From: an uncultured archaeon
GTDB taxonomy: Archaea > Asgardarchaeota > Lokiarchaeia > Sigyniarchaeales > SOKP01
Assembly (NCBI GenBank): GCA_964447495.1
Contig: CAYUTF010000006.1
Span: forward strand, 1,156-65,155
DNA length: 64,000 nt
Direction: 5' to 3'
Each line of letters starts with the position of its first letter. Position 1 is the first letter of the stretch. Under the pieces are notes generated by a model. That model searched no databases. It was not told the origin of the DNA and was given only the letters and a program-made list of their open reading frames with translations. A program made the position numbers and the translations under genes. Shown here one piece after another: positions 28,561 to 56,768 of the stretch.

Positions 28561-29349
28561 TTAAATTTTTATAATATTCTTTTCTGGCAGATAATCTTCA
28601 TTAATTATATGACCATCTTCAAAAGTGATTACCCTATTCGCAAGTTCGATTAAAAACTCGTCATGGCTAGCTATTATTATCGTTTTTTCATTTTCTTTCA
28701 TATCCTTAAAGATATCCCTAATAAAAATGCTAGTATCTTTATCTAAATTAGCAGTAGGCTCATCTGCTAAAATGAAGGGAGGCTCATTTGCTAATGCTCG
28801 AGCTATTGCTACTCTTTGTTGTTCACCCGCAGATAATTGGAAAGGTAGATGCTCTCTTCTATTTCCAAGTCCAACCTTTTTCAAAAGCTTAACAGCTTTT
28901 TCTCTCTGTTCTTTTAGGCTTAGCCCTGTTAAACTCATGGGAAACATGACATTTTCTTCTGCAGTTAATGTGCTAATCAAATTATAATTTTGAAAGATAA
29001 AACCCGAATTTATCAATCTAAATGTAGCTAAACTCTCTTCTCCCATATCTGTAATTCTTATTCCATTTGAGATAATAATTCCTGAATTTGGATTGTCTAA
29101 ACCACCAAGAAGATTTAATAAAGTAGTTTTTCCTGCTCCAGAGGGACCTTTTATCACAATGAAATCATTTTTCATAATTTCTAAGGATACATTATCTACT
29201 GCTCTGACTATATACTCACCAATTTCATAATCCTTGGTAAGCTTTTTTGCTATTAATATCATATTTGTGTCAAAAACGATATCTGATAATTCAGAGTCTT
29301 CTAAATTAGGTTGATCTTCTAAAATTTTCTTCGACATTTTATATTCCAT
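28561..29349 (-). CDS. ABC transporter ATP-binding protein (MacB/LolD-like)
   Basis: Walker A GPSGAGKTT, signature LSAGEQQR and Walker B ILADEP are present. Confidence 0.9.
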   Translation of the reverse strand: MEYKMSKKILEDQPNLEDSELSDIVFDTNMILIAKKLTKDYEIGEYIVRAVDNVSLEIMKNDFIVIKGPSGAGKTTLLNLLGGLDNPNSGIIISNGIRITDMGEESLATFRLINSGFIFQNYNLISTLTAEENVMFPMSLTGLSLKEQREKAVKLLKKVGLGNRREHLPFQLSAGEQQRVAIARALANEPPFILADEPTANLDKDTSIFIRDIFKDMKENEKTIIIASHDEFLIELANRVITFEDGHIINEDYLPEKNIIKI

Positions 29350-29852: not shown

Positions 29853-30488
29853 GTGGATTTTGAAAAATTAACAGAACTTATTATAGAATTAGAAGTAGAT
29901 GATATCGCGGATGCCGTTAAAGAAGCGTTAGAAGCAGATGGAAAAGATCCATTTGACATTTTAAATGCTTTAACGAAAGGGATGGATGAAGTTGGTAAAC
30001 GTTATGAAGAGAAGGAATACTACCTTACAGAGCTTGTTTTGGCCGGTGAAACCATGAAAGAAGCATTTAAGGTATTACAGCCAGCCTTAGCTGCTGTGGA
30101 TAAATCGCAAGACAAGACTAAAATTATTTTAGCGACAGTAAAGGGGGATAATCATGATATTGGCAAAAATATTCTCGCATCCTTGCTTTTGAGCTCAGGA
30201 TTTGAACTTATTGACCTTGGAATGGATGTTGGCGAAGACATAATTGTACAAAAGGTCAAAGAAACGGGAGCAACCATTATAGCTTTAAGCTCCTTACTTA
30301 CGATGACAGTGGAACAGATAAAGGTTGTGGATGAGGCATTAAGAGCGGCAGGTATTAGAGATAAAGTTAGTTTAATTGTTGGAGGCGCACCATTAAATAT
30401 GGAACTTGCAAAAAAACTAGGCGCTGATGACTTCGCTGAAGATGCCGTCGATGGTGTTAAGCATATTAAGAAATTAGCAGGAAAATAG
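29853..30488 (+). CDS. cobalamin-binding corrinoid protein (MtaC/MtbC/MttC-like)
   Basis: It has a B12-binding cap helix bundle plus a Rossmann domain with the DxHxxG motif (GDNHDIGKN) and SxL (SSLLT). Confidence 0.8.
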   Translation: MDFEKLTELIIELEVDDIADAVKEALEADGKDPFDILNALTKGMDEVGKRYEEKEYYLTELVLAGETMKEAFKVLQPALAAVDKSQDKTKIILATVKGDNHDIGKNILASLLLSSGFELIDLGMDVGEDIIVQKVKETGATIIALSSLLTMTVEQIKVVDEALRAAGIRDKVSLIVGGAPLNMELAKKLGADDFAEDAVDGVKHIKKLAGK

Positions 30489-30716: not shown

Positions 30717-31001
30717 TTGAATGAATGTGTTTACAAGGAGGTTTTTAATTTGGCTGATGAAAAAAAGAAGATAAAGTATGATGGGGAACTAGATACAAGA
30801 GGTTTATTTTGTCCAGAACCACTTTTTGAGGTGCGTAATTTTTCAGAATCGCTAGAAATCGGTCAATGCTTTAAAGTATTGGCAGATGATCCTGCCGCAG
30901 AAGAGGATTTAACTCGATGGGCAAAAAGGACTGATACAGAAATAGTAGAGTTCTTTAAAGATGGGGAAGATTTAGTGTTTTATTTTAAGAAAAAAAAGTA
31001 A
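30717..31001 (+). CDS. tusA: TusA/SirA-family sulfurtransferase
   Basis: GLFCPEPLFEV...VLADDPAAEEDLTRWAK matches the TusA CPxP signature. The likely true start is TTG 30750, 8 nt after AGGAGG (30736-30741). Confidence 0.8.
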   Translation: MNECVYKEVFNLADEKKKIKYDGELDTRGLFCPEPLFEVRNFSESLEIGQCFKVLADDPAAEEDLTRWAKRTDTEIVEFFKDGEDLVFYFKKKK

Positions 31002-31028: not shown

Positions 31029-32207
31029 ATGAGTTATTATTTAGACAATCAAGCGGCAAAACCCGTGGATGAACGGGTTATTGAAGAAATGATGCCCTAC
31101 TTCAGAGAGAAATTTGCTAATCCTGCTTCTCTTCATTGTGATGGTGACATTGCTACTGACGTTTTAGAGAAGTCTCGAAAGAAAGTTGCTGATTTTATTA
31201 ACGCACCAGATGCATCTGATATTATATTCACTTCAGGAGCCACAGAATCAAATAACTTAGCTTTAATTGGTGCAGCTTTAAAATATCAGAAAAAAGGGAA
31301 GCATATAATCATATCAGAAATCGAACATATATCTATTCACAATATTGCAAAATACCTAGAAAAACTAGGATTCAGAGTCAGTAGAGTTGCGGTTGATCAA
31401 TTTGGAATAATTAGATTAGATAAGTTAGAAAGGCTAATTTCAGACGATACCATTTTAGTTTCTATCACTACAGCAAGTAATGAGGTGGGGTCATTGCAGC
31501 CAACAGAGGAAATTAGTAAAATAACAAAAGAAAATAACGTTTTATTTCATACGGATGCGATTCCAAGTGAAAGTGTTATCCCTATAGATGTCCAAAAAAC
31601 ACCCATAGACTTAATTACACTCTCTTCAAATGATATTTATGGCCCTAGAGGAGTTGGCGCATTATATTTACGAAAAGGAGTAAGAGTAAATCCAATACTT
31701 ATTGGTGGTGGACAAGAAAAAGGATTACGATCTGGTTCTGAAAATATTCCAGGAATAGTTGGTTTTGCTAAGGCTGCAGAGATAACAAAACGTGAAATGG
31801 AAATGGAAGCAAAGAGATTAAAAGTAATGAGAGATAAATTAATTAGAAATGTCTTAGAGACAATTCCAAAATCACATTTAAATGGTCATCCTGAAAAAAG
31901 ACTTCCTAACAATGCTCATTTTAGATTTGATTACATTGAAGGAGAATCTTTAATTTTAGGATTAAAAGAACATAAAATAGCTGCTGCCACCGGTTCTGCT
32001 TGTAGTTCAAAAACGTTAGAAGCGTCTCATACACTAATTTCTATGGGTTTACTCCACGAAGAAGCTCATGGAAGTTTATTAGTCTCATTAGGTAGAACAA
32101 CAAAAGAATCTGATATCGATAAATTAATTGAAACTTTGCCTGGAGTTGTAAAAAGATTACGCATATTATCACCCCTAACGCCTCCTGAATTATTAAAAGA
32201 AGAATAA
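31029..32207 (+). CDS. iscS: cysteine desulfurase (IscS/NifS class)
   Basis: It has PLP-fold motifs (FTSGATESNN, HTDA, SSNDIYGPRGVGALY) and the active-site loop GSACSS. Confidence 0.9.
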   Translation: MSYYLDNQAAKPVDERVIEEMMPYFREKFANPASLHCDGDIATDVLEKSRKKVADFINAPDASDIIFTSGATESNNLALIGAALKYQKKGKHIIISEIEHISIHNIAKYLEKLGFRVSRVAVDQFGIIRLDKLERLISDDTILVSITTASNEVGSLQPTEEISKITKENNVLFHTDAIPSESVIPIDVQKTPIDLITLSSNDIYGPRGVGALYLRKGVRVNPILIGGGQEKGLRSGSENIPGIVGFAKAAEITKREMEMEAKRLKVMRDKLIRNVLETIPKSHLNGHPEKRLPNNAHFRFDYIEGESLILGLKEHKIAAATGSACSSKTLEASHTLISMGLLHEEAHGSLLVSLGRTTKESDIDKLIETLPGVVKRLRILSPLTPPELLKEE

Positions 32208-32226: not shown

Positions 32227-33024
32227 ATGAAATCTACGCAGTATTCTGAGAAAGTAATGGAACATTTTAGAAATCCTCGCAATGTAGGGGTTATAGAGAA
32301 CCCAGATGGTGTGGGACGTGTTGGGAACCCCGTGTGCGGGGATTTGATGGAAGTATTTATAAAAGTAAAGAAGGATGAGAAAGGTGAGGATGTTATTGAT
32401 GACATCAAATTCAGAACTTTTGGATGCGGCTCTGCTGTTGCCACATCTTCAATGGTAACAGAAATGGCTAAAGGTATGAAATTAGACGATGCTTATAAAA
32501 TAACTAGAACAGATATAGCTGACGAATTAGATGGTTTACCCCCGATTAAGATGCATTGCTCTAATTTAGGTGCAGACGCTCTGAAAGCAGCAATCGATAA
32601 TTATAGGCTGGGTACTAATTCTGATGTTGAAATCGCAGCTTCTTGTAGTGTACCTAACCTTAAAGTTATCCTTGGTTTAGAAGAATTTATTGGAAAAGGT
32701 GTCTATAAAAAGGTTCCAGAACTTTCAGAATTAAAAGATAAGAGAGTTTTAGTATTAGATTATGGAGACAGATCATTGGAACTTGCATTAGAGTTAACTA
32801 AATACACGGGACGAGTTATTGTACTTACTTCTGCTAAATCGATGCCTGGATCTCAAGAAGTAAAGATGAAACTAAAAGCTTCTGATGTAAAAGTGTTGTA
32901 TCAATCAGAACTTTTAGAAGTCCAAGGTACGAATGATGTAGAAAAAGTTGTTATTCTTGATCATGACGAGGAAGAGAAATACGATTTATATCTGGACTCT
33001 GTAATAATTTTGGATGAAGAGTAA
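32227..33024 (+). CDS. iscU: IscU/NifU-type Fe-S scaffold fused to a degenerate thioredoxin-reductase-like NADPH-domain
   Basis: The N-terminal ~130 aa carry all three IscU Cys motifs (GNPVCGD, FGCGSAVA, MHCSNLG). The C-terminal ~115 aa (GLEEFIGKGVYKKVPELSELKDKRVLVLDYGDRSLELALELTKYTGRVIVL...) align by eye to the TrxR NADPH domain. The CxxC motif is replaced by KKVP and GGGDSA by DYGDRS. Confidence 0.75.
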   Translation: MKSTQYSEKVMEHFRNPRNVGVIENPDGVGRVGNPVCGDLMEVFIKVKKDEKGEDVIDDIKFRTFGCGSAVATSSMVTEMAKGMKLDDAYKITRTDIADELDGLPPIKMHCSNLGADALKAAIDNYRLGTNSDVEIAASCSVPNLKVILGLEEFIGKGVYKKVPELSELKDKRVLVLDYGDRSLELALELTKYTGRVIVLTSAKSMPGSQEVKMKLKASDVKVLYQSELLEVQGTNDVEKVVILDHDEEEKYDLYLDSVIILDEE

Positions 33025-33285: not shown

Positions 33286-35685
33286 ATGAGAAAAGTTATT
33301 ATTGTCGGCGGAGTTGCTGGTGGAGCTTCAGCAGCAGCTCGTTTAAGAAGATTAAGGGAAGATAATGAGATTATAGTTCTTGAAAAGGGTTCATACGTGT
33401 CTTTTGCTAATTGTGGTTTACCATATTATGTAGGTAACGTCATTAAAGAACGAGGACAATTAGAATTGATGACCCCTAAAGATTTTTATGATCGTTTTAA
33501 CATTGACGTAAGAATAAAGCAGGAAGTAATATCCATTAATCGTGATGAAAAGACAATTACTATCAAAAATTTAGAAGATGACAAAGAATATAGGTTAGGG
33601 TATGATTATTTAATTCTTTCTCCAGGTGCAGCTCCTATAGTACCTCCTTTTAAGGGGTTAGAGGACGTACCAACTTTTACTCTTAGAACTATTCCCGATT
33701 CTGTGAAAATTAAAGAATTTGCTGAAAAAAATAAAGTAAAACATACAACGATAATCGGAGGTGGGTATATCGGATTAGAAATGGCAGAAAACCTAAAAAA
33801 AAAAGGAATTAGAGTGAAAATTGTTGAAATGCTTGATCAAGTCTTAGCCCCTTTAGATAAAGAGATTGCTCAATTTGTGCACCAGGAATTGATTTTAAAT
33901 GGAGTGTGCCTGCAATTAGGGGATGCTGTTGATTCGTTTCAGTGTGACGATCAAAAATGTAATTATGTGATTCCGAGAAGCGGGAAAAAAATTAAAACGG
34001 ATATGATTATTATGGCGATTGGTGTGAAACCAGAGAATAAATTAGCTGTAGACTCTGGATTAGAAATTGGACCAAAAGGCCATATTGTTGTTGATGATCA
34101 TATGAGAACATCTGATCCCTATATATATGCTGTAGGGGATGTTGTTCAAACTAAAAATTATCTAACAAATCAACCTACTGCCATTCCACTTGCAGGTCCA
34201 GCGAATAAGCAAGGTAGGATTGCCGCAGATAATATTGCTGGACGAGATTCAACATATAAAGGAGTATTAGGAGCATCCGTACTGAAAGTTTTTGATCTTA
34301 CAGTTGCGTTTGTTGGATTAAGCGAGAAGCAATTAAAAGGTTCGGATATTGCTTATGAAAAAATTTATATCCATCCAAATAACCATGCGGGTTATTATCC
34401 TGGTGCGATTCCAATCACATTGAAATTATTATTTGAAACTCCGAGCGGGAGAATTCTGGGAGCTCAGGCTATGGGTGGCCCTGGTACAGAAAAACGAATA
34501 GATGTATTATCGACCGCAATCAAGTTTAGGGGAACTGTATATGACTTAGAAGAATTAGAACTTACTTATGCTCCACCTTTTGGATCAGCAAAAGATCCAG
34601 TAAACATGGCGGGATTTGTCGCCGCAAATGTACTACGAGGGGATCATCCCATATGGCATTGGGAGGATTTGCCAGATATTCAACAAAATAATAGTCTCTT
34701 TTTAGATGTGAGGACACCTGAAGAATTTGCAGTTGGGAGCATAGAAAATGCCCTCAATATCAATGATTTAGATTTGCGAAATAAACTTAGTAAGATTCCG
34801 AAAAATAAAAATATCTATGTATTCTGTGAGGTAGGATTTAGAGGCTATTTAGCAACGAGATTATTGCTTCAAGAAGGATTCAAAAGTGTACGTAATCTGA
34901 CTGGGGGTTATAAGTTATTAAAAACCGCACAAGCAACAATCCAAGAACTAGCTGAAGCATGCGGACCACCGGAGGAAATTATTGAAGATATGATGGAGAA
35001 AAAAACTATTGAAACAGATGAATTCATTGAAGTTGATGCGTGTGGTATTTCCTGTCCTGGTCCTTTGAACGCTCTCATACAAGGACTTGAAAAGTTGCCT
35101 CCAGGTAAAAAATTAAAAATATATGCGTCTGACCCCGGATTTAAATCTAGTGTAGAAGCCTATGTGCAACTTAATGAAGGTGTAAATTTATTACACTTAG
35201 GAAAAGAAAAAGGTAAATTGCTGGCGATACTTGAGAAGGGAAGATTAACCAAAGATGAGGTCGAAGCGCCAGTTAAAACAAAAAAAAAGACAAGAAAAAC
35301 TTTAAGAGGACCAGACGCGCCTGCCTTATCAGAAATTAATGCCAAGGAACTATATGAAAGATTTGGTGGTGATGATTCACCGGCAGTAATAGTAGATGTT
35401 CGAATGCCCAATGAGTACCTGGAAACAGGCATTATTAGAGGTGCCAAACTAATCCCTCTAGGAGAGTTGATGAGTGATTTGGGAAAATTAGAAGCCTATA
35501 AAGATAAAGAGATCGTAGTTTTATGCGCTGTTGGGGGACGATCTTTTATGGCAGCCCAACTTTTGGTGAGAGCCGGGTTCAGTGATGTTAGGAATTTAGT
35601 AGGAGGGATTAGAGCATGGTTACGACTCGGATATCCCACAATCGATAGTGCTATAGATTCAGCCGTAAAATATCTTAGAACCTAA
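33286..35685 (+). CDS. CoA-disulfide/persulfide reductase (CoADR) fused to rhodanese, TusA-like and a second rhodanese domain
   Basis: The FAD motif is IIVGGVAGGASAA. The redox Cys lies in SFANCGLPYY (tgt 33412-33414). Rhodanese 1 has active-site FCEVGFRG (~34825). The TusA-like motif is DACGISCPGP (~35041-35064). Rhodanese 2 has LCAVGGRS (~35524). Confidence 0.8.
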   Translation: MRKVIIVGGVAGGASAAARLRRLREDNEIIVLEKGSYVSFANCGLPYYVGNVIKERGQLELMTPKDFYDRFNIDVRIKQEVISINRDEKTITIKNLEDDKEYRLGYDYLILSPGAAPIVPPFKGLEDVPTFTLRTIPDSVKIKEFAEKNKVKHTTIIGGGYIGLEMAENLKKKGIRVKIVEMLDQVLAPLDKEIAQFVHQELILNGVCLQLGDAVDSFQCDDQKCNYVIPRSGKKIKTDMIIMAIGVKPENKLAVDSGLEIGPKGHIVVDDHMRTSDPYIYAVGDVVQTKNYLTNQPTAIPLAGPANKQGRIAADNIAGRDSTYKGVLGASVLKVFDLTVAFVGLSEKQLKGSDIAYEKIYIHPNNHAGYYPGAIPITLKLLFETPSGRILGAQAMGGPGTEKRIDVLSTAIKFRGTVYDLEELELTYAPPFGSAKDPVNMAGFVAANVLRGDHPIWHWEDLPDIQQNNSLFLDVRTPEEFAVGSIENALNINDLDLRNKLSKIPKNKNIYVFCEVGFRGYLATRLLLQEGFKSVRNLTGGYKLLKTAQATIQELAEACGPPEEIIEDMMEKKTIETDEFIEVDACGISCPGPLNALIQGLEKLPPGKKLKIYASDPGFKSSVEAYVQLNEGVNLLHLGKEKGKLLAILEKGRLTKDEVEAPVKTKKKTRKTLRGPDAPALSEINAKELYERFGGDDSPAVIVDVRMPNEYLETGIIRGAKLIPLGELMSDLGKLEAYKDKEIVVLCAVGGRSFMAAQLLVRAGFSDVRNLVGGIRAWLRLGYPTIDSAIDSAVKYLRT

Positions 35686-35818: not shown

Positions 35819-36403
35819 ATGAAAGAAACTCCAAAAAAACTCTTCGCCGCCTATGTCGGGGAGAGCCAAGCACGTAATCGGTATACTTTCTTCGCTAAAG
35901 TCGCAAAAAAGGATGGTTATGCTTTAATATCAAAGATTTTTGAAGAGACCGCTATGCAAGAGCTGCAACACGGTACTTGGTTTTATAAAATGTTACAAGA
36001 TTTTAAGAAGGAAGAAAAATTCGATGATTTTAAGGTTTGCGAAGAATATCCAACCACATACGGAAATACCATCGAAAATTTAAAATCAGCCGTAAAAGGT
36101 GAGAATATGGAATGGCAAACGCTCTATCCCGATTTAGCAAATACAGCTGAGAAAGAAGGTTATCCTGAGGTCGCAAAGAGAACCCGAGCAATTGCTCGAG
36201 CAGAACAGCATCATGCAGAACGCTACGGAAAATTGTTAAAGTTAATAGGTGACGATGCATTCTTTAAGCGTGGAAAAAAGGTCGTTTGGGTATGCTTAGA
36301 ATGTGGTTATGAAGTAGAAATGGATAAGCTTCCAGATGATTGGAAATGTCCTTCATGTGGCCATCCCAGAGCATATTTCATGAAGAAATGTGAAGAGTTC
36401 TAA
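35819..36403 (+). CDS. rbr: rubrerythrin
   Basis: It has diiron four-helix motifs (ExxH twice: MQELQH, AEQHH) plus a C-terminal rubredoxin-like CLEC...CPSC. GGTGA lies 4 nt upstream of the ATG. Confidence 0.9.
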   Translation: MKETPKKLFAAYVGESQARNRYTFFAKVAKKDGYALISKIFEETAMQELQHGTWFYKMLQDFKKEEKFDDFKVCEEYPTTYGNTIENLKSAVKGENMEWQTLYPDLANTAEKEGYPEVAKRTRAIARAEQHHAERYGKLLKLIGDDAFFKRGKKVVWVCLECGYEVEMDKLPDDWKCPSCGHPRAYFMKKCEEF

Positions 36404-36509: not shown

Positions 36510-36905
36510 ATGAAACAAAAAGAAATTTACCATTGCGAAATTTGTGGAAAAGTTATAGAGATTCTTCACCCCGGCACTGCTCCAGAAACGATTTGCTGCG
36601 GAAAACCTATGAAATTAATGGAAGAGAAAACAGCGGACTGGAAAGGTGAGAAACATGTGCCAAAGATCACGGTGAACGGGAATAAGATTACCGTTGACAT
36701 AGGTATTAGCATGGGTACTCCTCATCCAATGACTTCTGAGCATTATATCATGTGGATTGAGATAATCTGTAAGGACGGATGCTATGAAAGAAGATTCTTG
36801 AAGCCTGGTATGGAACCTAAAGCAACCTTTACCGTTGCTAATCCAGAAGGTATGTGGGCTCGCGAATATTGTAATATCCACGGTTTATGGAAAGGAACAA
36901 AATAG
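36510..36905 (+). CDS. dfx: desulfoferrodoxin (2Fe superoxide reductase)
   Basis: The N-terminal desulforedoxin motif is CEIC...CC, and a neelaredoxin-type domain follows (EKHVPKI..., HPMTSEHYIMWIE, CNIHGLW). Confidence 0.9.
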   Translation: MKQKEIYHCEICGKVIEILHPGTAPETICCGKPMKLMEEKTADWKGEKHVPKITVNGNKITVDIGISMGTPHPMTSEHYIMWIEIICKDGCYERRFLKPGMEPKATFTVANPEGMWAREYCNIHGLWKGTK

Positions 36906-54396: not shown

Positions 54397-55080
54397 ATGT
54401 CGCAAGATGATAAATATCGAGAGATAATTAAGAGAGAAATGGCTAAATTGACTAAGCCGGTGAAATTGAAAGTATTCACTTCTCTAAGCGCTAAACCAGA
54501 TGGAACTAAGATAAGAGCTTGCATGGATTGCGATCAGTTTATGTCTTTATTAAGAATTTATGAAGAAAATTCTAATGGATTGCTCACAATAAATGAGCTT
54601 TCCATTGAGGAAAATCCAGAATTTGCTAAAAGATATGACATTCAGAGAGTTCCAACAATATTATTTGTAGATGATAATGGGGATGAATTAATTAGATATT
54701 TAGCAGCCCCTCAAGGTGGAGAGATCCAACCGTTTATTCAAGCACTTTTTACTTTTGCAGGATCTCCCAATTATTATGAAGCAACAATAAAGCAAAATCT
54801 AAATAGAATTTCACCATCCACGATAAAAGTTATGATCACAAATTCTTGCCCATATTGCCCTCAAGTAGTCTCAATAAGCAATCAGTTTGCATTGGCTTCG
54901 AACGGAAAAATTAGAACTATAGTCATCGATATTATGGCAAATCCTGATATAGGACAATATTATGATGCCTCTGGTGTACCATATACTATTATTAATGATA
55001 AAAAAACTTTAGTTGGAATGGTAGGTCCGAATGAAATAATTCGAGAGCTTATTGGGGGCAATATCCGGGTACAGTATTGA
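54397..55080 (+). CDS. protein disulfide oxidoreductase (PDO), paralog 2
   Basis: The N-unit has CMDC and the C-unit has CPYC. GGTGAT lies 8 nt upstream of the ATG. Confidence 0.75.
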   Translation: MSQDDKYREIIKREMAKLTKPVKLKVFTSLSAKPDGTKIRACMDCDQFMSLLRIYEENSNGLLTINELSIEENPEFAKRYDIQRVPTILFVDDNGDELIRYLAAPQGGEIQPFIQALFTFAGSPNYYEATIKQNLNRISPSTIKVMITNSCPYCPQVVSISNQFALASNGKIRTIVIDIMANPDIGQYYDASGVPYTIINDKKTLVGMVGPNEIIRELIGGNIRVQY

Positions 55081-55113: not shown

Positions 55114-55773
55114 GTGAGCAAAATGCCAGCTTCATACATAATTAAGAAAATGTTAAAACAAGAATTAAATAAGCTTCTAAACCCTGTTAGGCTAATGTTA
55201 TTTTTTGATAATAATGATACAATAAAATCCCAAGGAGAAAAAGATAATTTATTAACACTTAAGATGTATGAAGAGTATTCTAATGGGAAGTTAATATTCG
55301 AAAAATACATTATCAATGAAAATAAAGAATTAGCAGAAAAATATCACATTGATAGAGTTCCAACTATTTTGTTTGTTGATGATAAAGGAAATGAACTAAT
55401 TCGCTATCTAGCGATACCAAAAGGTAGTGAAGTAAAACCATTTATTCAAACCATAGTAATACTTTCAGGAGTGAAGAATTATTATAAAGCCGCTATTAGA
55501 GGAATTATTGGAAAGATTGATTCTACTACTTTAAAGGTCATGGTGACAGATTCTTGTGCCTATTGTCCAGAATTAGTCATTATGGCTTCCCAATTTGCAC
55601 TGGCTTCGAAAGGAAAGATTAGAGCCGAAATAATAGATATTATGAAAAATCATGATATTGGTAATAAATATAATACTCAAAGTGTTCCTTATATTGTTAT
55701 AAACGATAGGAATCCTATAGTAGGTTTATATCACCCTAATGATTTATTGGAGGAAATTCTTAAAGAAAATTAA
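55114..55773 (+). CDS. protein disulfide oxidoreductase (PDO) paralog 3, N-terminal CxxC lost
   Basis: It is colinear with paralogs 1 and 2. The C-unit CAYC is retained, but the N-unit position reads KSQGEKDNLL with no Cys. Confidence 0.7.
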   Translation: MSKMPASYIIKKMLKQELNKLLNPVRLMLFFDNNDTIKSQGEKDNLLTLKMYEEYSNGKLIFEKYIINENKELAEKYHIDRVPTILFVDDKGNELIRYLAIPKGSEVKPFIQTIVILSGVKNYYKAAIRGIIGKIDSTTLKVMVTDSCAYCPELVIMASQFALASKGKIRAEIIDIMKNHDIGNKYNTQSVPYIVINDRNPIVGLYHPNDLLEEILKEN

Positions 55774-55823: not shown

Positions 55824-56768
55824 ATGTATAATATTAATATGGAAGAATTTGATGTAGAGAAAATATATGATCTTATTGTTTTAGGAGGAGGTCCTACGGC
55901 TATAGGATGTGCAATATATGCAAAACGATTCGCAATGGATGTGCTCATAATAGGCAAAACTTTTGGAGGATTAATTGCTACTACTCATATTGTAGAAAAT
56001 TATCCTGGAATTACTACAGTTAGTGGTCAGGGCTTAATGGATATGTTCAGAGATCATATGGATTCGCTAGAGATCCCGTACATTTCTGATGAAATAAGAA
56101 GCATTGAAAAAATAGATGACCATTTTGAATTGCTTTCTTTTTTCCAGAAATTTAAAGCCCATTCAATCGTCATCGCAACAGGATCAGTAAGGAAGAAGCT
56201 GGGGATACCTGGAGAAGATGAATTTGCAGGAAGGGGAGTATCTTATTGTGCAACTTGTGATGGTCCATTTTACAAGGATAAGATAGTTTGCGTAATAGGA
56301 GGGAGTGATTCGGCAGCAAAAGAGGCTCTCTTTTTAGCACAGAATGTTAAAAAAGTCTATATCATATATCGAGGTGAAGAATTAAGAGCTGAACCAATAA
56401 ATAAAAAAAGAGTAAAAGAAAATGAGAAAATTGAAATCATATATAAGAGAAATATCATAGAAATCATCGGAGAGGGAAATGTTAAATCTGTTATGTTTGA
56501 TAATGGAGAGATTCTACATGTCGATGGTGTGTTTATTGAAATAGGATCCGTTCCTAACTCTGAGATTGCTCAGCGAATTGGAGTAAATTTGAATGCAAAA
56601 AATGAGATTATAATAAATCGTAAATCCGAAACAAATATTCCTGGTATATTTGCTGCAGGAGATGTGGCGGATGCTCCTTTCAAGCAAGCAATAACAGGAG
56701 TGGCAGAAGGAGTAATGGCAGCATATTCCTCATTTGACTTTTTAAAAGAAATGAATATTGAATATTAA
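55824..56768 (+). CDS. trxB: thioredoxin reductase
   Basis: GGGPTAIG, the redox motif CATCDG, GGSDSAAKEA and GDV are present. Confidence 0.9.
   Translation: MYNINMEEFDVEKIYDLIVLGGGPTAIGCAIYAKRFAMDVLIIGKTFGGLIATTHIVENYPGITTVSGQGLMDMFRDHMDSLEIPYISDEIRSIEKIDDHFELLSFFQKFKAHSIVIATGSVRKKLGIPGEDEFAGRGVSYCATCDGPFYKDKIVCVIGGSDSAAKEALFLAQNVKKVYIIYRGEELRAEPINKKRVKENEKIEIIYKRNIIEIIGEGNVKSVMFDNGEILHVDGVFIEIGSVPNSEIAQRIGVNLNAKNEIIINRKSETNIPGIFAAGDVADAPFKQAITGVAEGVMAAYSSFDFLKEMNIEY

Follow-up and report, generated by a model that had tools for sequence, protein, structure and literature searches.

Of all iron-sulfur (Fe-S) assembly machines, the minimal IscS-IscU systems found in anaerobes are understood least. 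They lack ferredoxin, frataxin and chaperones, and how sulfur and electrons reach them has yet to be explained (PMC13066941). Here we analyzed a 64,000-nucleotide stretch of DNA, hereafter the window, from an uncultured archaeon of the Lokiarchaeia (contig CAYUTF010000006.1 of assembly GCA_964447495.1), in which the gene for the IscU scaffold continues into a second domain. We term the encoded protein IscU::C and its second domain the C-domain. A preliminary description, made from the letters of the window, had proposed an IscU fused to a non-catalytic NADPH-type module of the thioredoxin reductase (TrxR) family. Sequence comparison, profile searches and predicted structures all support this proposal: IscU::C is a complete IscU joined to an apparently non-catalytic TrxR-family NADPH-type domain, without the FAD domain. 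The open reading frame (ORF) of the fusion, its parts, the two genes preceding it and the TrxB used for comparison are the following:

30717..31001, + strand: TusA-family sulfur carrier with a CPEP motif, first gene of the TusA-IscS-IscU::C cluster (Pfam PF01206, E = 6e-18)
31029..32207, + strand: IscS-like protein without the lysine that binds pyridoxal 5'-phosphate (PLP; motif SSNDIYGP) and with the loop cysteine kept (TGSACSS), identified by PDB match and motif
32227..33024, + strand: whole IscU::C fusion ORF, uninterrupted from ATG to stop, 265 amino acids plus stop
32227..32610, + strand: IscU (NifU_N) scaffold domain, residues 1-128, with ligands C37, D39, C67, H110 and C111 and an LPPIK motif at 104-108
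32611..32664, + strand: flexible linker, residues 129-146 (about 18 residues), with Cys140 (codon 32644-32646), delimited by the predicted local distance difference test (pLDDT) and alignments
32665..33021, + strand: C-domain, residues 147-265, Rossmann-type, homologous to the NAD(P)H domain and both hinge strands of low-Mr TrxR and TrxR-like FNR
32707..32718, + strand: positions equivalent to CxxC, K161-K-V-P164, no cysteine (column comparison, BLASTP to TrxB)
32758..32775, + strand: degenerate dinucleotide loop D178-Y-G180-D-R-S183 in place of GxGxxA (column comparison)
32827..32835, + strand: T201-S-A203 in place of the HRR of HRRxxxR (alignment to 2zbw, column comparison)
32959..32976, + strand: acidic β-hairpin D245-x-D247-E248-E-E250, followed by Y252 (column comparison)
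55824..56768, + strand: canonical TrxB with CATC and GGSDSA motifs, used as a comparator only (sequence alignment)

The first of the two domains is a canonical IscU of the single-domain archaeal/clostridial type. The Pfam profile NifU_N (PF01592) matched residues 5-127 with 158 bits against a cutoff of 22 (E = 1.4e-46), and the NCBIfam profile TIGR03419 (NifU_clost) scored 190.3 bits, exceeding its cutoff of 187.9. The domain had been described as a complete IscU with three ligand cysteines, in agreement with these scores; C37, C67 and C111 are present and, together with D39 and H110, are unchanged across 144 aligned homologues. It is 70% identical to the IscU of PDB entry 7c8m and 62% identical to the IscU of Archaeoglobus fulgidus (4eb5_C). 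Its AlphaFold2 model was superposed with Foldseek on 7c8m, 4eb5_C and 3lvl_A, with target-normalised TM-scores of 0.83-0.91 and root-mean-square deviations (rmsd) of 1.4-2.1 Å. Assembly and transfer of Fe-S clusters by this domain are predicted.

The C-domain had been aligned by eye with the NADPH domain of TrxR, and this alignment was borne out by profile, pairwise and structural comparisons. The profile TIGR01292 (thioredoxin-disulfide reductase) matched residues ~138-265 through its positions 119-232 of 300 (E = 5.4e-12), and BLASTP aligned the C-domain with the TrxB of the window at 27% identity over 128 amino acids (E = 4e-7). Searched as a single sequence against the PDB with phmmer, it matched TrxR and TrxR-like FNR chains, the best being 2zbw at 7.9e-8; searched as a family profile, it retrieved 2zbw (3.6e-16), then the FNRs 5xhu and 3lzw (~1e-11) and then TrxRs (~1e-10). 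AlphaFold2 predicted the domain with pLDDT values of 85-94 as a β-α-β-α-β core followed by a β-meander. Foldseek superposed this model over 118-125 columns on the NADPH domains of 2zbw, 3lzw, 3f8d, 2q7v, 4gcm, 1fl2 and others, with rmsd of 1.7-3.5 Å (1.7-2.7 Å for several TrxR structures) and E values of 5e-12 to 3e-10. The hidden Markov model searches, the structure prediction and the superposition that had been recommended for this region therefore assign it to a TrxR-family NADPH domain and not to an unrelated fold. Profile scans of the fusion protein found no dedicated model for the C-domain in Pfam or NCBIfam, and database annotations give the fusion proteins plain NifU or Fe-S scaffold names. 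TrxB aside, no second IscU and no paralogue of the C-domain was found in the window.

The ends of the C-domain correspond to the two hinges of the parent enzyme. The match opens with the strand by which the TrxR chain exits the FAD domain ('VIATGSV' in TrxB, 'IAASCSV' in the fusion) and ends with the strand that re-enters it ('VDGVFI' and 'LDSVII', respectively). Past this second hinge strand the fusion stops after 4 residues, whereas TrxB runs on for 76 residues of FAD domain. Read from these alignments, the C-domain is an exact excision of the pyridine-nucleotide-binding domain with both hinge strands kept; with IscU as the N-terminus and so short a tail, the protein has no FAD domain, as stated earlier.

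More than 230 database proteins of 258-275 amino acids are full-length homologues of the fusion. With the whole protein as query, more than 120 sequences 261-272 amino acids long were obtained at 68-89% identity, the named ones coming from metagenome-assembled genomes (MAGs) of Promethearchaeota/Lokiarchaeota. A second clade was reached via a divergent fusion, P0122 (59% identical). Its named members, by their NCBI names, are the delta proteobacterium NaphS2, other Deltaproteobacteria/Desulfobacteria, Actinobacteria MAGs and a Coriobacteriia MAG; NaphS2 is a cultured strain and its genome, GCA_000179315.1, carries the fusion. We also searched one genome per GTDB species with a C-domain profile, and 253 species had relatives. 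Our locus counts are based on the 80 best of these, which are almost all Asgard-labelled MAGs, and the IscU and C parts lie in a single ORF at 79 of the 80 loci, the remaining locus being cut by a contig end. The fusion is thus a widespread family of Asgard archaea and anaerobic bacteria (Desulfobacterota, Actinobacteriota), which answers the call for a phyletic survey in the preliminary description.

The same counts settle whether the fusion could be an artefact of assembly, or of a frameshift joining two genes, an alternative that had been raised with the original proposal. Of 80 species genomes assembled independently of one another, 79 have it as a single ORF, which rules this out, and the fusion is shared by the full-length database proteins and by the genome of the cultured NaphS2; we regard it as real and give the artefact practically no credence.

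Among the databases searched, the C-domain occurs on IscU only. An exhaustive phmmer search of the C-domain against 1.84 billion cluster representatives found no convincing case of the domain alone or on another partner: the 29 matches at E < 1e-10 were all fusions of at most 269 amino acids or fragments, and many of them either start at the Met inside 'MHCSNLAADAL' or have a chimeric appearance (such as P0148 and P0144).

By every criterion tested here, IscU::C is a member of the IscU family and not a TrxR, a TrxR-like FNR or NifU proper. Membership of the low-Mr TrxRs was rejected because the FAD domain, the CxxC and the NADPH motifs are all missing, and its total for TIGR01292 is 45 bits where full-length members exceed a cutoff of 343.45. 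It shares a GKGVY motif and the lack of CxxC with the TrxR-like FNRs, but the FAD domain is absent and the C-domain is homologous to only one of their domains. For NifU proper, the profile TIGR02000 gave 153.9 bits against a cutoff of 273.3, with a match limited to residues 5-128.

Enzymes of the TrxR family carry a CxxC motif, a GxGxxA/G motif for the pyrophosphate of NAD(P)H and an HRRxxxR motif for its 2'-phosphate (PMC8564101). In order to follow these positions, we compared the residues of 241 family members with those of 49 TrxR-like proteins. Cysteine occupies both CxxC columns in about half of the TrxR-like proteins and in none of the family members; the fusion has K161 and P164 there. 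The first glycine of GxGxxA is present in 100% of the TrxR-like proteins, whereas 98% of the family members have aspartate, and the alignment to 2zbw places 'IHRRPQF' opposite 'vtsakel' of the family profile. The motif readings in the preliminary description, namely that CATC is absent and that GGSDSA has become DYGDRS, were correct. With no FAD domain or CxxC, and with the first glycine and HRR replaced, redox catalysis by the C-domain is very unlikely and, given the roles of these motifs, NAD(P)H binding has very probably been lost with it. Judged by its motifs, the C-domain is a pseudo-enzyme domain, with no FAD domain, redox cysteines, GxGxxA pyrophosphate loop or HRRxxxR 2'-phosphate motif.

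The redox pair had been said to be 'gone'. Its absence stands, but loss is probably not how it came about. The top PDB match, 2zbw, leads by 15 bits and the aligned segment, GRGVYYAVKSKAEF, has no cysteines. Moreover, 7 of the 10 best full-length TrxR-like matches in the phmmer search lack CxxC and have GGGxxA and HRR (P0151, P0153, P0159, P0171-P0174). The lack of CxxC in 2zbw and in these relatives suggests that the redox cysteines were likely never present in the ancestor, rather than lost from it. The donor was probably a CxxC-less TrxR-like enzyme of the FNR type, for which this evidence is suggestive and not proof.

Despite the lost catalytic motifs, the C-domain is under strong constraint. 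Ten positions are invariant across the Asgard and bacterial clades (R173, G180, L190, R196, S219, K222, G234, E248, L254 and D257), and the residues R173, D178, S183, T194, R196, T201, D220, K222, K240, E248 and Y252 are family-specific with respect to the TrxR-like proteins. The acidic β-hairpin is especially constant, with E248 in 100%, D245 in 99% and Y252 in 98% of the members, each of them family-specific, and the motif D-x-D-E-[DE]-E-x-Y-E-L in 209 of 238 members. The net charge of the C-domain is -9.9 ± 2.6, compared with -2.7 ± 3.9 in the homologous NADPH domains of TrxR-like enzymes, and the isoelectric point (pI) of the C-domain in the window is 4.7.

Conservation of this kind could reflect a live ligand site. 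The C-domain would then bind a nucleotide or metal at the crevice (D178, G180, D181, S183, T201), or Fe2+ on the hairpin, and serve as a sensor or iron donor. D178, S183 and T201 are 94-98% conserved and family-specific, the conserved hairpin is strongly acidic, and some members pass the Pfam Pyr_redox threshold in precomputed annotations. However, divergent family clades have E, Y, F or H at position 178 (Gly in no clade) and may have D, S or N instead of G180, so that no ligand geometry is common to the whole family; an acidic side chain at the position of the first glycine and the loss of HRR also speak against NAD(P)H binding. We consider such a site improbable. D178 as a conserved metal ligand was rejected, as it holds in the two main clades and fails in the divergent ones.

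Two AlphaFold2 runs with different alignments (53 and 144 sequences) gave predicted TM-scores (pTM) of 0.54 and 0.49, with high confidence for each domain itself and pLDDT values below 50 for linker residues 132-146 in both. The low pTM and the disordered linker disfavour a fixed packing of the C-domain on IscU, which we rejected; the predicted picture is one of two rigid domains on a flexible tether. Within the two main clades, all 241 members have the linker residue C140, which is missing from some divergent clades (P0121, P0124, P0126, P0128), so that its candidacy as an essential residue holds in the former and fails in the latter.

Dimerisation of IscU has been proposed as a step to [4Fe-4S] clusters (PMC13066941). 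A tethered, independently folded domain with conserved surface charges could self-associate, and a homodimer of C-domains might hold two IscU domains together for the reductive coupling of two [2Fe-2S] clusters into one [4Fe-4S] cluster. Nevertheless, the dimer interface of TrxR and FNR enzymes is made by their FAD domains and not by the NADPH domain, and a net charge near -10 disfavours self-association, making this role for the C-domain unlikely.

The genes next to the fusion point to the system in which it works. In the window, TusA and IscS are separated by 27 bp, and IscS and the fusion by 19 bp. The order TusA, IscS, IscU::C recurs in nearly all Asgard loci long enough to show it, and bacterial and divergent loci have TusA-(DsrE)-IscS-IscU::C. 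A DsrE-family gene lies between TusA and IscS in five loci of the divergent and bacterial clades (L081-L084 and L087), which strengthens the tie of the module to persulfide relay proteins. As in a minimal ISC system, the IscS and IscU genes are adjacent and the cluster contains no genes for chaperones (HscAB), Fdx or IscA.

The IscS-like protein of the window has its best PDB match in A. fulgidus IscS2 (4eb5, E = 3e-134), with the same SSNDIYGP motif. The His-Lys of the PLP site is replaced by Asn-Asp; the engineered A. fulgidus variant D199K (4r5f) reads SSNKIYGP. Reportedly, A. fulgidus IscS has no desulfurase activity, owing to the Lys-to-Asp substitution, and gives its loop cysteine as fourth ligand to the [2Fe-2S] cluster of IscU (PMC7585200, citing Marinoni 2012, Yamanaka 2013 and Pagnier 2014). 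Among the IscS ORFs adjoining fusion genes, archaeal and bacterial, all 83 have ND or NE at the PLP site and all 83 keep the loop cysteine of TGSAC[ST]S. Shortly downstream of the PLP site, 100% of these cognate proteins keep a segment, [KR][KR]G[VI][RK], that is basic throughout. The IscS of this family thus appears to be of the A. fulgidus IscS2 subtype instead of the active PLP-dependent desulfurase that MisS denotes.

The context also bears on whether the C-domain recruits an electron donor (a ferredoxin, flavodoxin or thioredoxin-fold protein) for persulfide reduction or cluster coupling. Its closest relatives are TrxR-like FNRs, the system has no dedicated Fdx, and the TusA and DsrE genes suggest a delivery of sulfane sulfur, which would need reduction; the fused redox module of NifU has been proposed as an electron donor (PMC13066941). 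In contrast, ferredoxins and thioredoxins are usually acidic, so that a domain with a charge of -10 would be an odd receptor, and the flavin to which a protein substrate of an FNR-type enzyme must gain access is carried by the FAD domain (PMC8564101), which is absent here. No conserved ferredoxin or thioredoxin gene was found in the operon at the loci examined. We therefore hold the recruitment of such a donor to be quite unlikely.

The fusion has TusA, a B12-binding protein, a CoA-disulfide reductase (CoADR)-rhodanese fusion, rubrerythrin and desulfoferrodoxin as neighbours in the window. Beyond the cluster itself, the surrounding features and those next to TrxB are:

28561..29349, - strand: divergently oriented ABC ATPase
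29853..30488, + strand: corrinoid (B12-binding) protein
33286..35685, + strand: 799-amino-acid CoA-disulfide-reductase-like flavoprotein with rhodanese-TusA-rhodanese (Pfam), 261 bp downstream of the fusion
35819..36403, + strand: rubrerythrin
36510..36905, + strand: desulfoferrodoxin (superoxide reductase)
54397..55080 and 55114..55773, + strand: two tandem paralogues of ~220 amino acids with 'CPYCP'/'CAYCP' motifs, directly upstream of TrxB

The 799-amino-acid protein consists of Pyr_redox_2 and a dimerisation domain followed by rhodanese, TusA and rhodanese, and looks like a flavoenzyme for handling persulfide or polysulfide with built-in sulfur carriers. Its gene lies downstream of the fusion in about 60 of the 80 Asgard loci and is absent from the bacterial ones; given this absence and the 261-bp distance, it is probably not a member of the core unit. 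Rubrerythrin and desulfoferrodoxin genes follow the cluster in many Asgard loci and not in bacterial ones, suggesting a neighbourhood for oxidative stress or Fe-S maintenance. In most Asgard loci, TusA-IscS-IscU::C is preceded by the genes for the B12-binding protein and the ABC ATPase. Nearly identical synteny, with 60-71% C-domain identity to the window, was seen at L001, L003, L007, L016 and other loci labelled Odin-, Hermod-, Hod- or Thorarchaeota, so either the module is common to several Asgard classes or the labels are loose. One locus labelled 'Candidatus Nanopelagicaceae bacterium' (L073, DATKTW010000107.1) has the full Asgard-type synteny (ABC, B12, TusA, IscS, IscU::C, CoADR-Rhd, Rbr, Dfx) and is probably a mis-binned Asgard contig. 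As for TrxB, it has YRG where HRR is expected and its nucleotide preference may be atypical; the two paralogues upstream of it are probably the PDOs of the preliminary description.

With these data at hand, we lean, by a little, towards the C-domain being a tethered non-catalytic docking or regulatory module in an IscS-IscU machine of the A. fulgidus type. The strong conservation, the acidification and the flexible tether would all fit such a role. Because the IscS lacks the PLP lysine, as it does in A. fulgidus, we propose an (IscS-IscU)2 assembly platform of that type, in which IscS would be non-catalytic and sulfur would come from sulfide or a TusA/DsrE relay and not from cysteine. The C-domain would swing on its tether as an acidic docking or regulatory module, the tether being long enough for a scaffold-bound C-domain to reach neighbouring surfaces. 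In clades that have C140, this linker cysteine may join in the hand-over of sulfur or clusters. In Escherichia coli, the acidic effector IscX uses the basic region of IscS. The acidic ferredoxin (pI 4.49) and CyaY compete for a site there made up of R220, R223 and R225 (PMC3750173). The most plausible target of the C-domain would be the conserved basic segment of its cognate IscS; alternatively, its task may be the capture of a redox or target partner.

Several observations weigh against a docking or regulatory role. The basic segment of the cognate IscS is presumably the counterpart of the R220-R225 patch of E. coli, an assignment made by motif position. The IscU domain and TusA are also acidic, which makes acidity alone weak evidence. 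Since C140 is absent from some divergent clades, it is not essential to the core role of the domain. The conserved and family-specific D178, S183 and T201 sit at the former nucleotide crevice and may mark a new ligand site. Finally, the PLP-less IscS of A. fulgidus works with a single-domain IscU, so a C-domain is not generally required.

A bolder proposal, which goes beyond the docking or regulatory module and which we find rather doubtful, is that TusA-(DsrE)-IscS-IscU::C, with its lysine-less IscS, constitutes a distinct and self-contained Fe-S assembly system, a third MisU architecture with two pseudo-enzyme modules. IscS would be only a platform for persulfide or cluster ligands, and the C-domain would be an effector at the frataxin/ferredoxin site of IscS that gates the entry of sulfur or electrons. 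As the ISC-type machinery that occurs across the Lokiarchaeia-like Asgard archaea, such a system would, if real, bear on Fe-S biogenesis in the archaeal ancestor of eukaryotes.

In summary, IscU::C presents an architecture, of which we found no earlier description, in which the scaffold is joined to what appears to be a cofactor-less remnant of a flavoenzyme NADPH domain and paired with a desulfurase homologue lacking the PLP lysine and with TusA. It offers a clean case of pseudo-enzyme evolution, the inserted domain having apparently been cut at two hinge strands, acidified and kept under strong selection. The prevalence of the fusion in Asgard archaea gives it some relevance to pre-mitochondrial Fe-S biogenesis, and the cultured NaphS2, which carries the operon, provides a testable handle on the question of sulfur and electron supply.

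The MIS and SMS systems were reportedly defined by Garcia et al. in 2022. As in MIS, the IscU gene described here lies directly downstream of IscS; unlike in MIS, the IscS has no PLP lysine. We found no description of the IscU::C architecture in the searchable full-text literature, a scope that leaves out many subscription papers, including the one defining MIS. A 2026 review gives only single-domain IscU-like and three-domain NifU-like architectures for MisU (PMC13066941). The single-domain IscU/MisU proteins of Methanothrix thermoacetophila (7c8m) and A. fulgidus (4eb5_C) have the same fold and the same Cys, Asp and His ligands, whereas IscU::C has some 135 extra residues of linker and C-domain. 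The (IscS-IscU)2 complex of A. fulgidus (PDB 4eb5, 4eb7, 4hvk), with which the Lys-to-Asp substitution and the loop cysteine are shared, is the best working model, although its IscU has no C-domain. For the C-domain, the best matches are the TrxR-like FNRs (Thermus thermophilus 2zbw, Bacillus subtilis YumC 3lzw, 5xhu, and Bacillus cereus 6gas/6gar), which share the G-[KR]-G-V-Y motif and the lack of CxxC; these have both domains of a complete FAD enzyme and keep GxGxxA and HRR intact, whereas the fusion has the NADPH-type domain only, with these motifs destroyed. The three-domain NifU follows the same design, an IscU-like domain with C-terminal modules, one of which is redox-derived (PMC13066941). 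However, the modules of NifU are a ferredoxin-like [2Fe-2S] domain and an Nfu domain, whereas that of IscU::C is an unrelated, apparently cofactor-less Rossmann domain.

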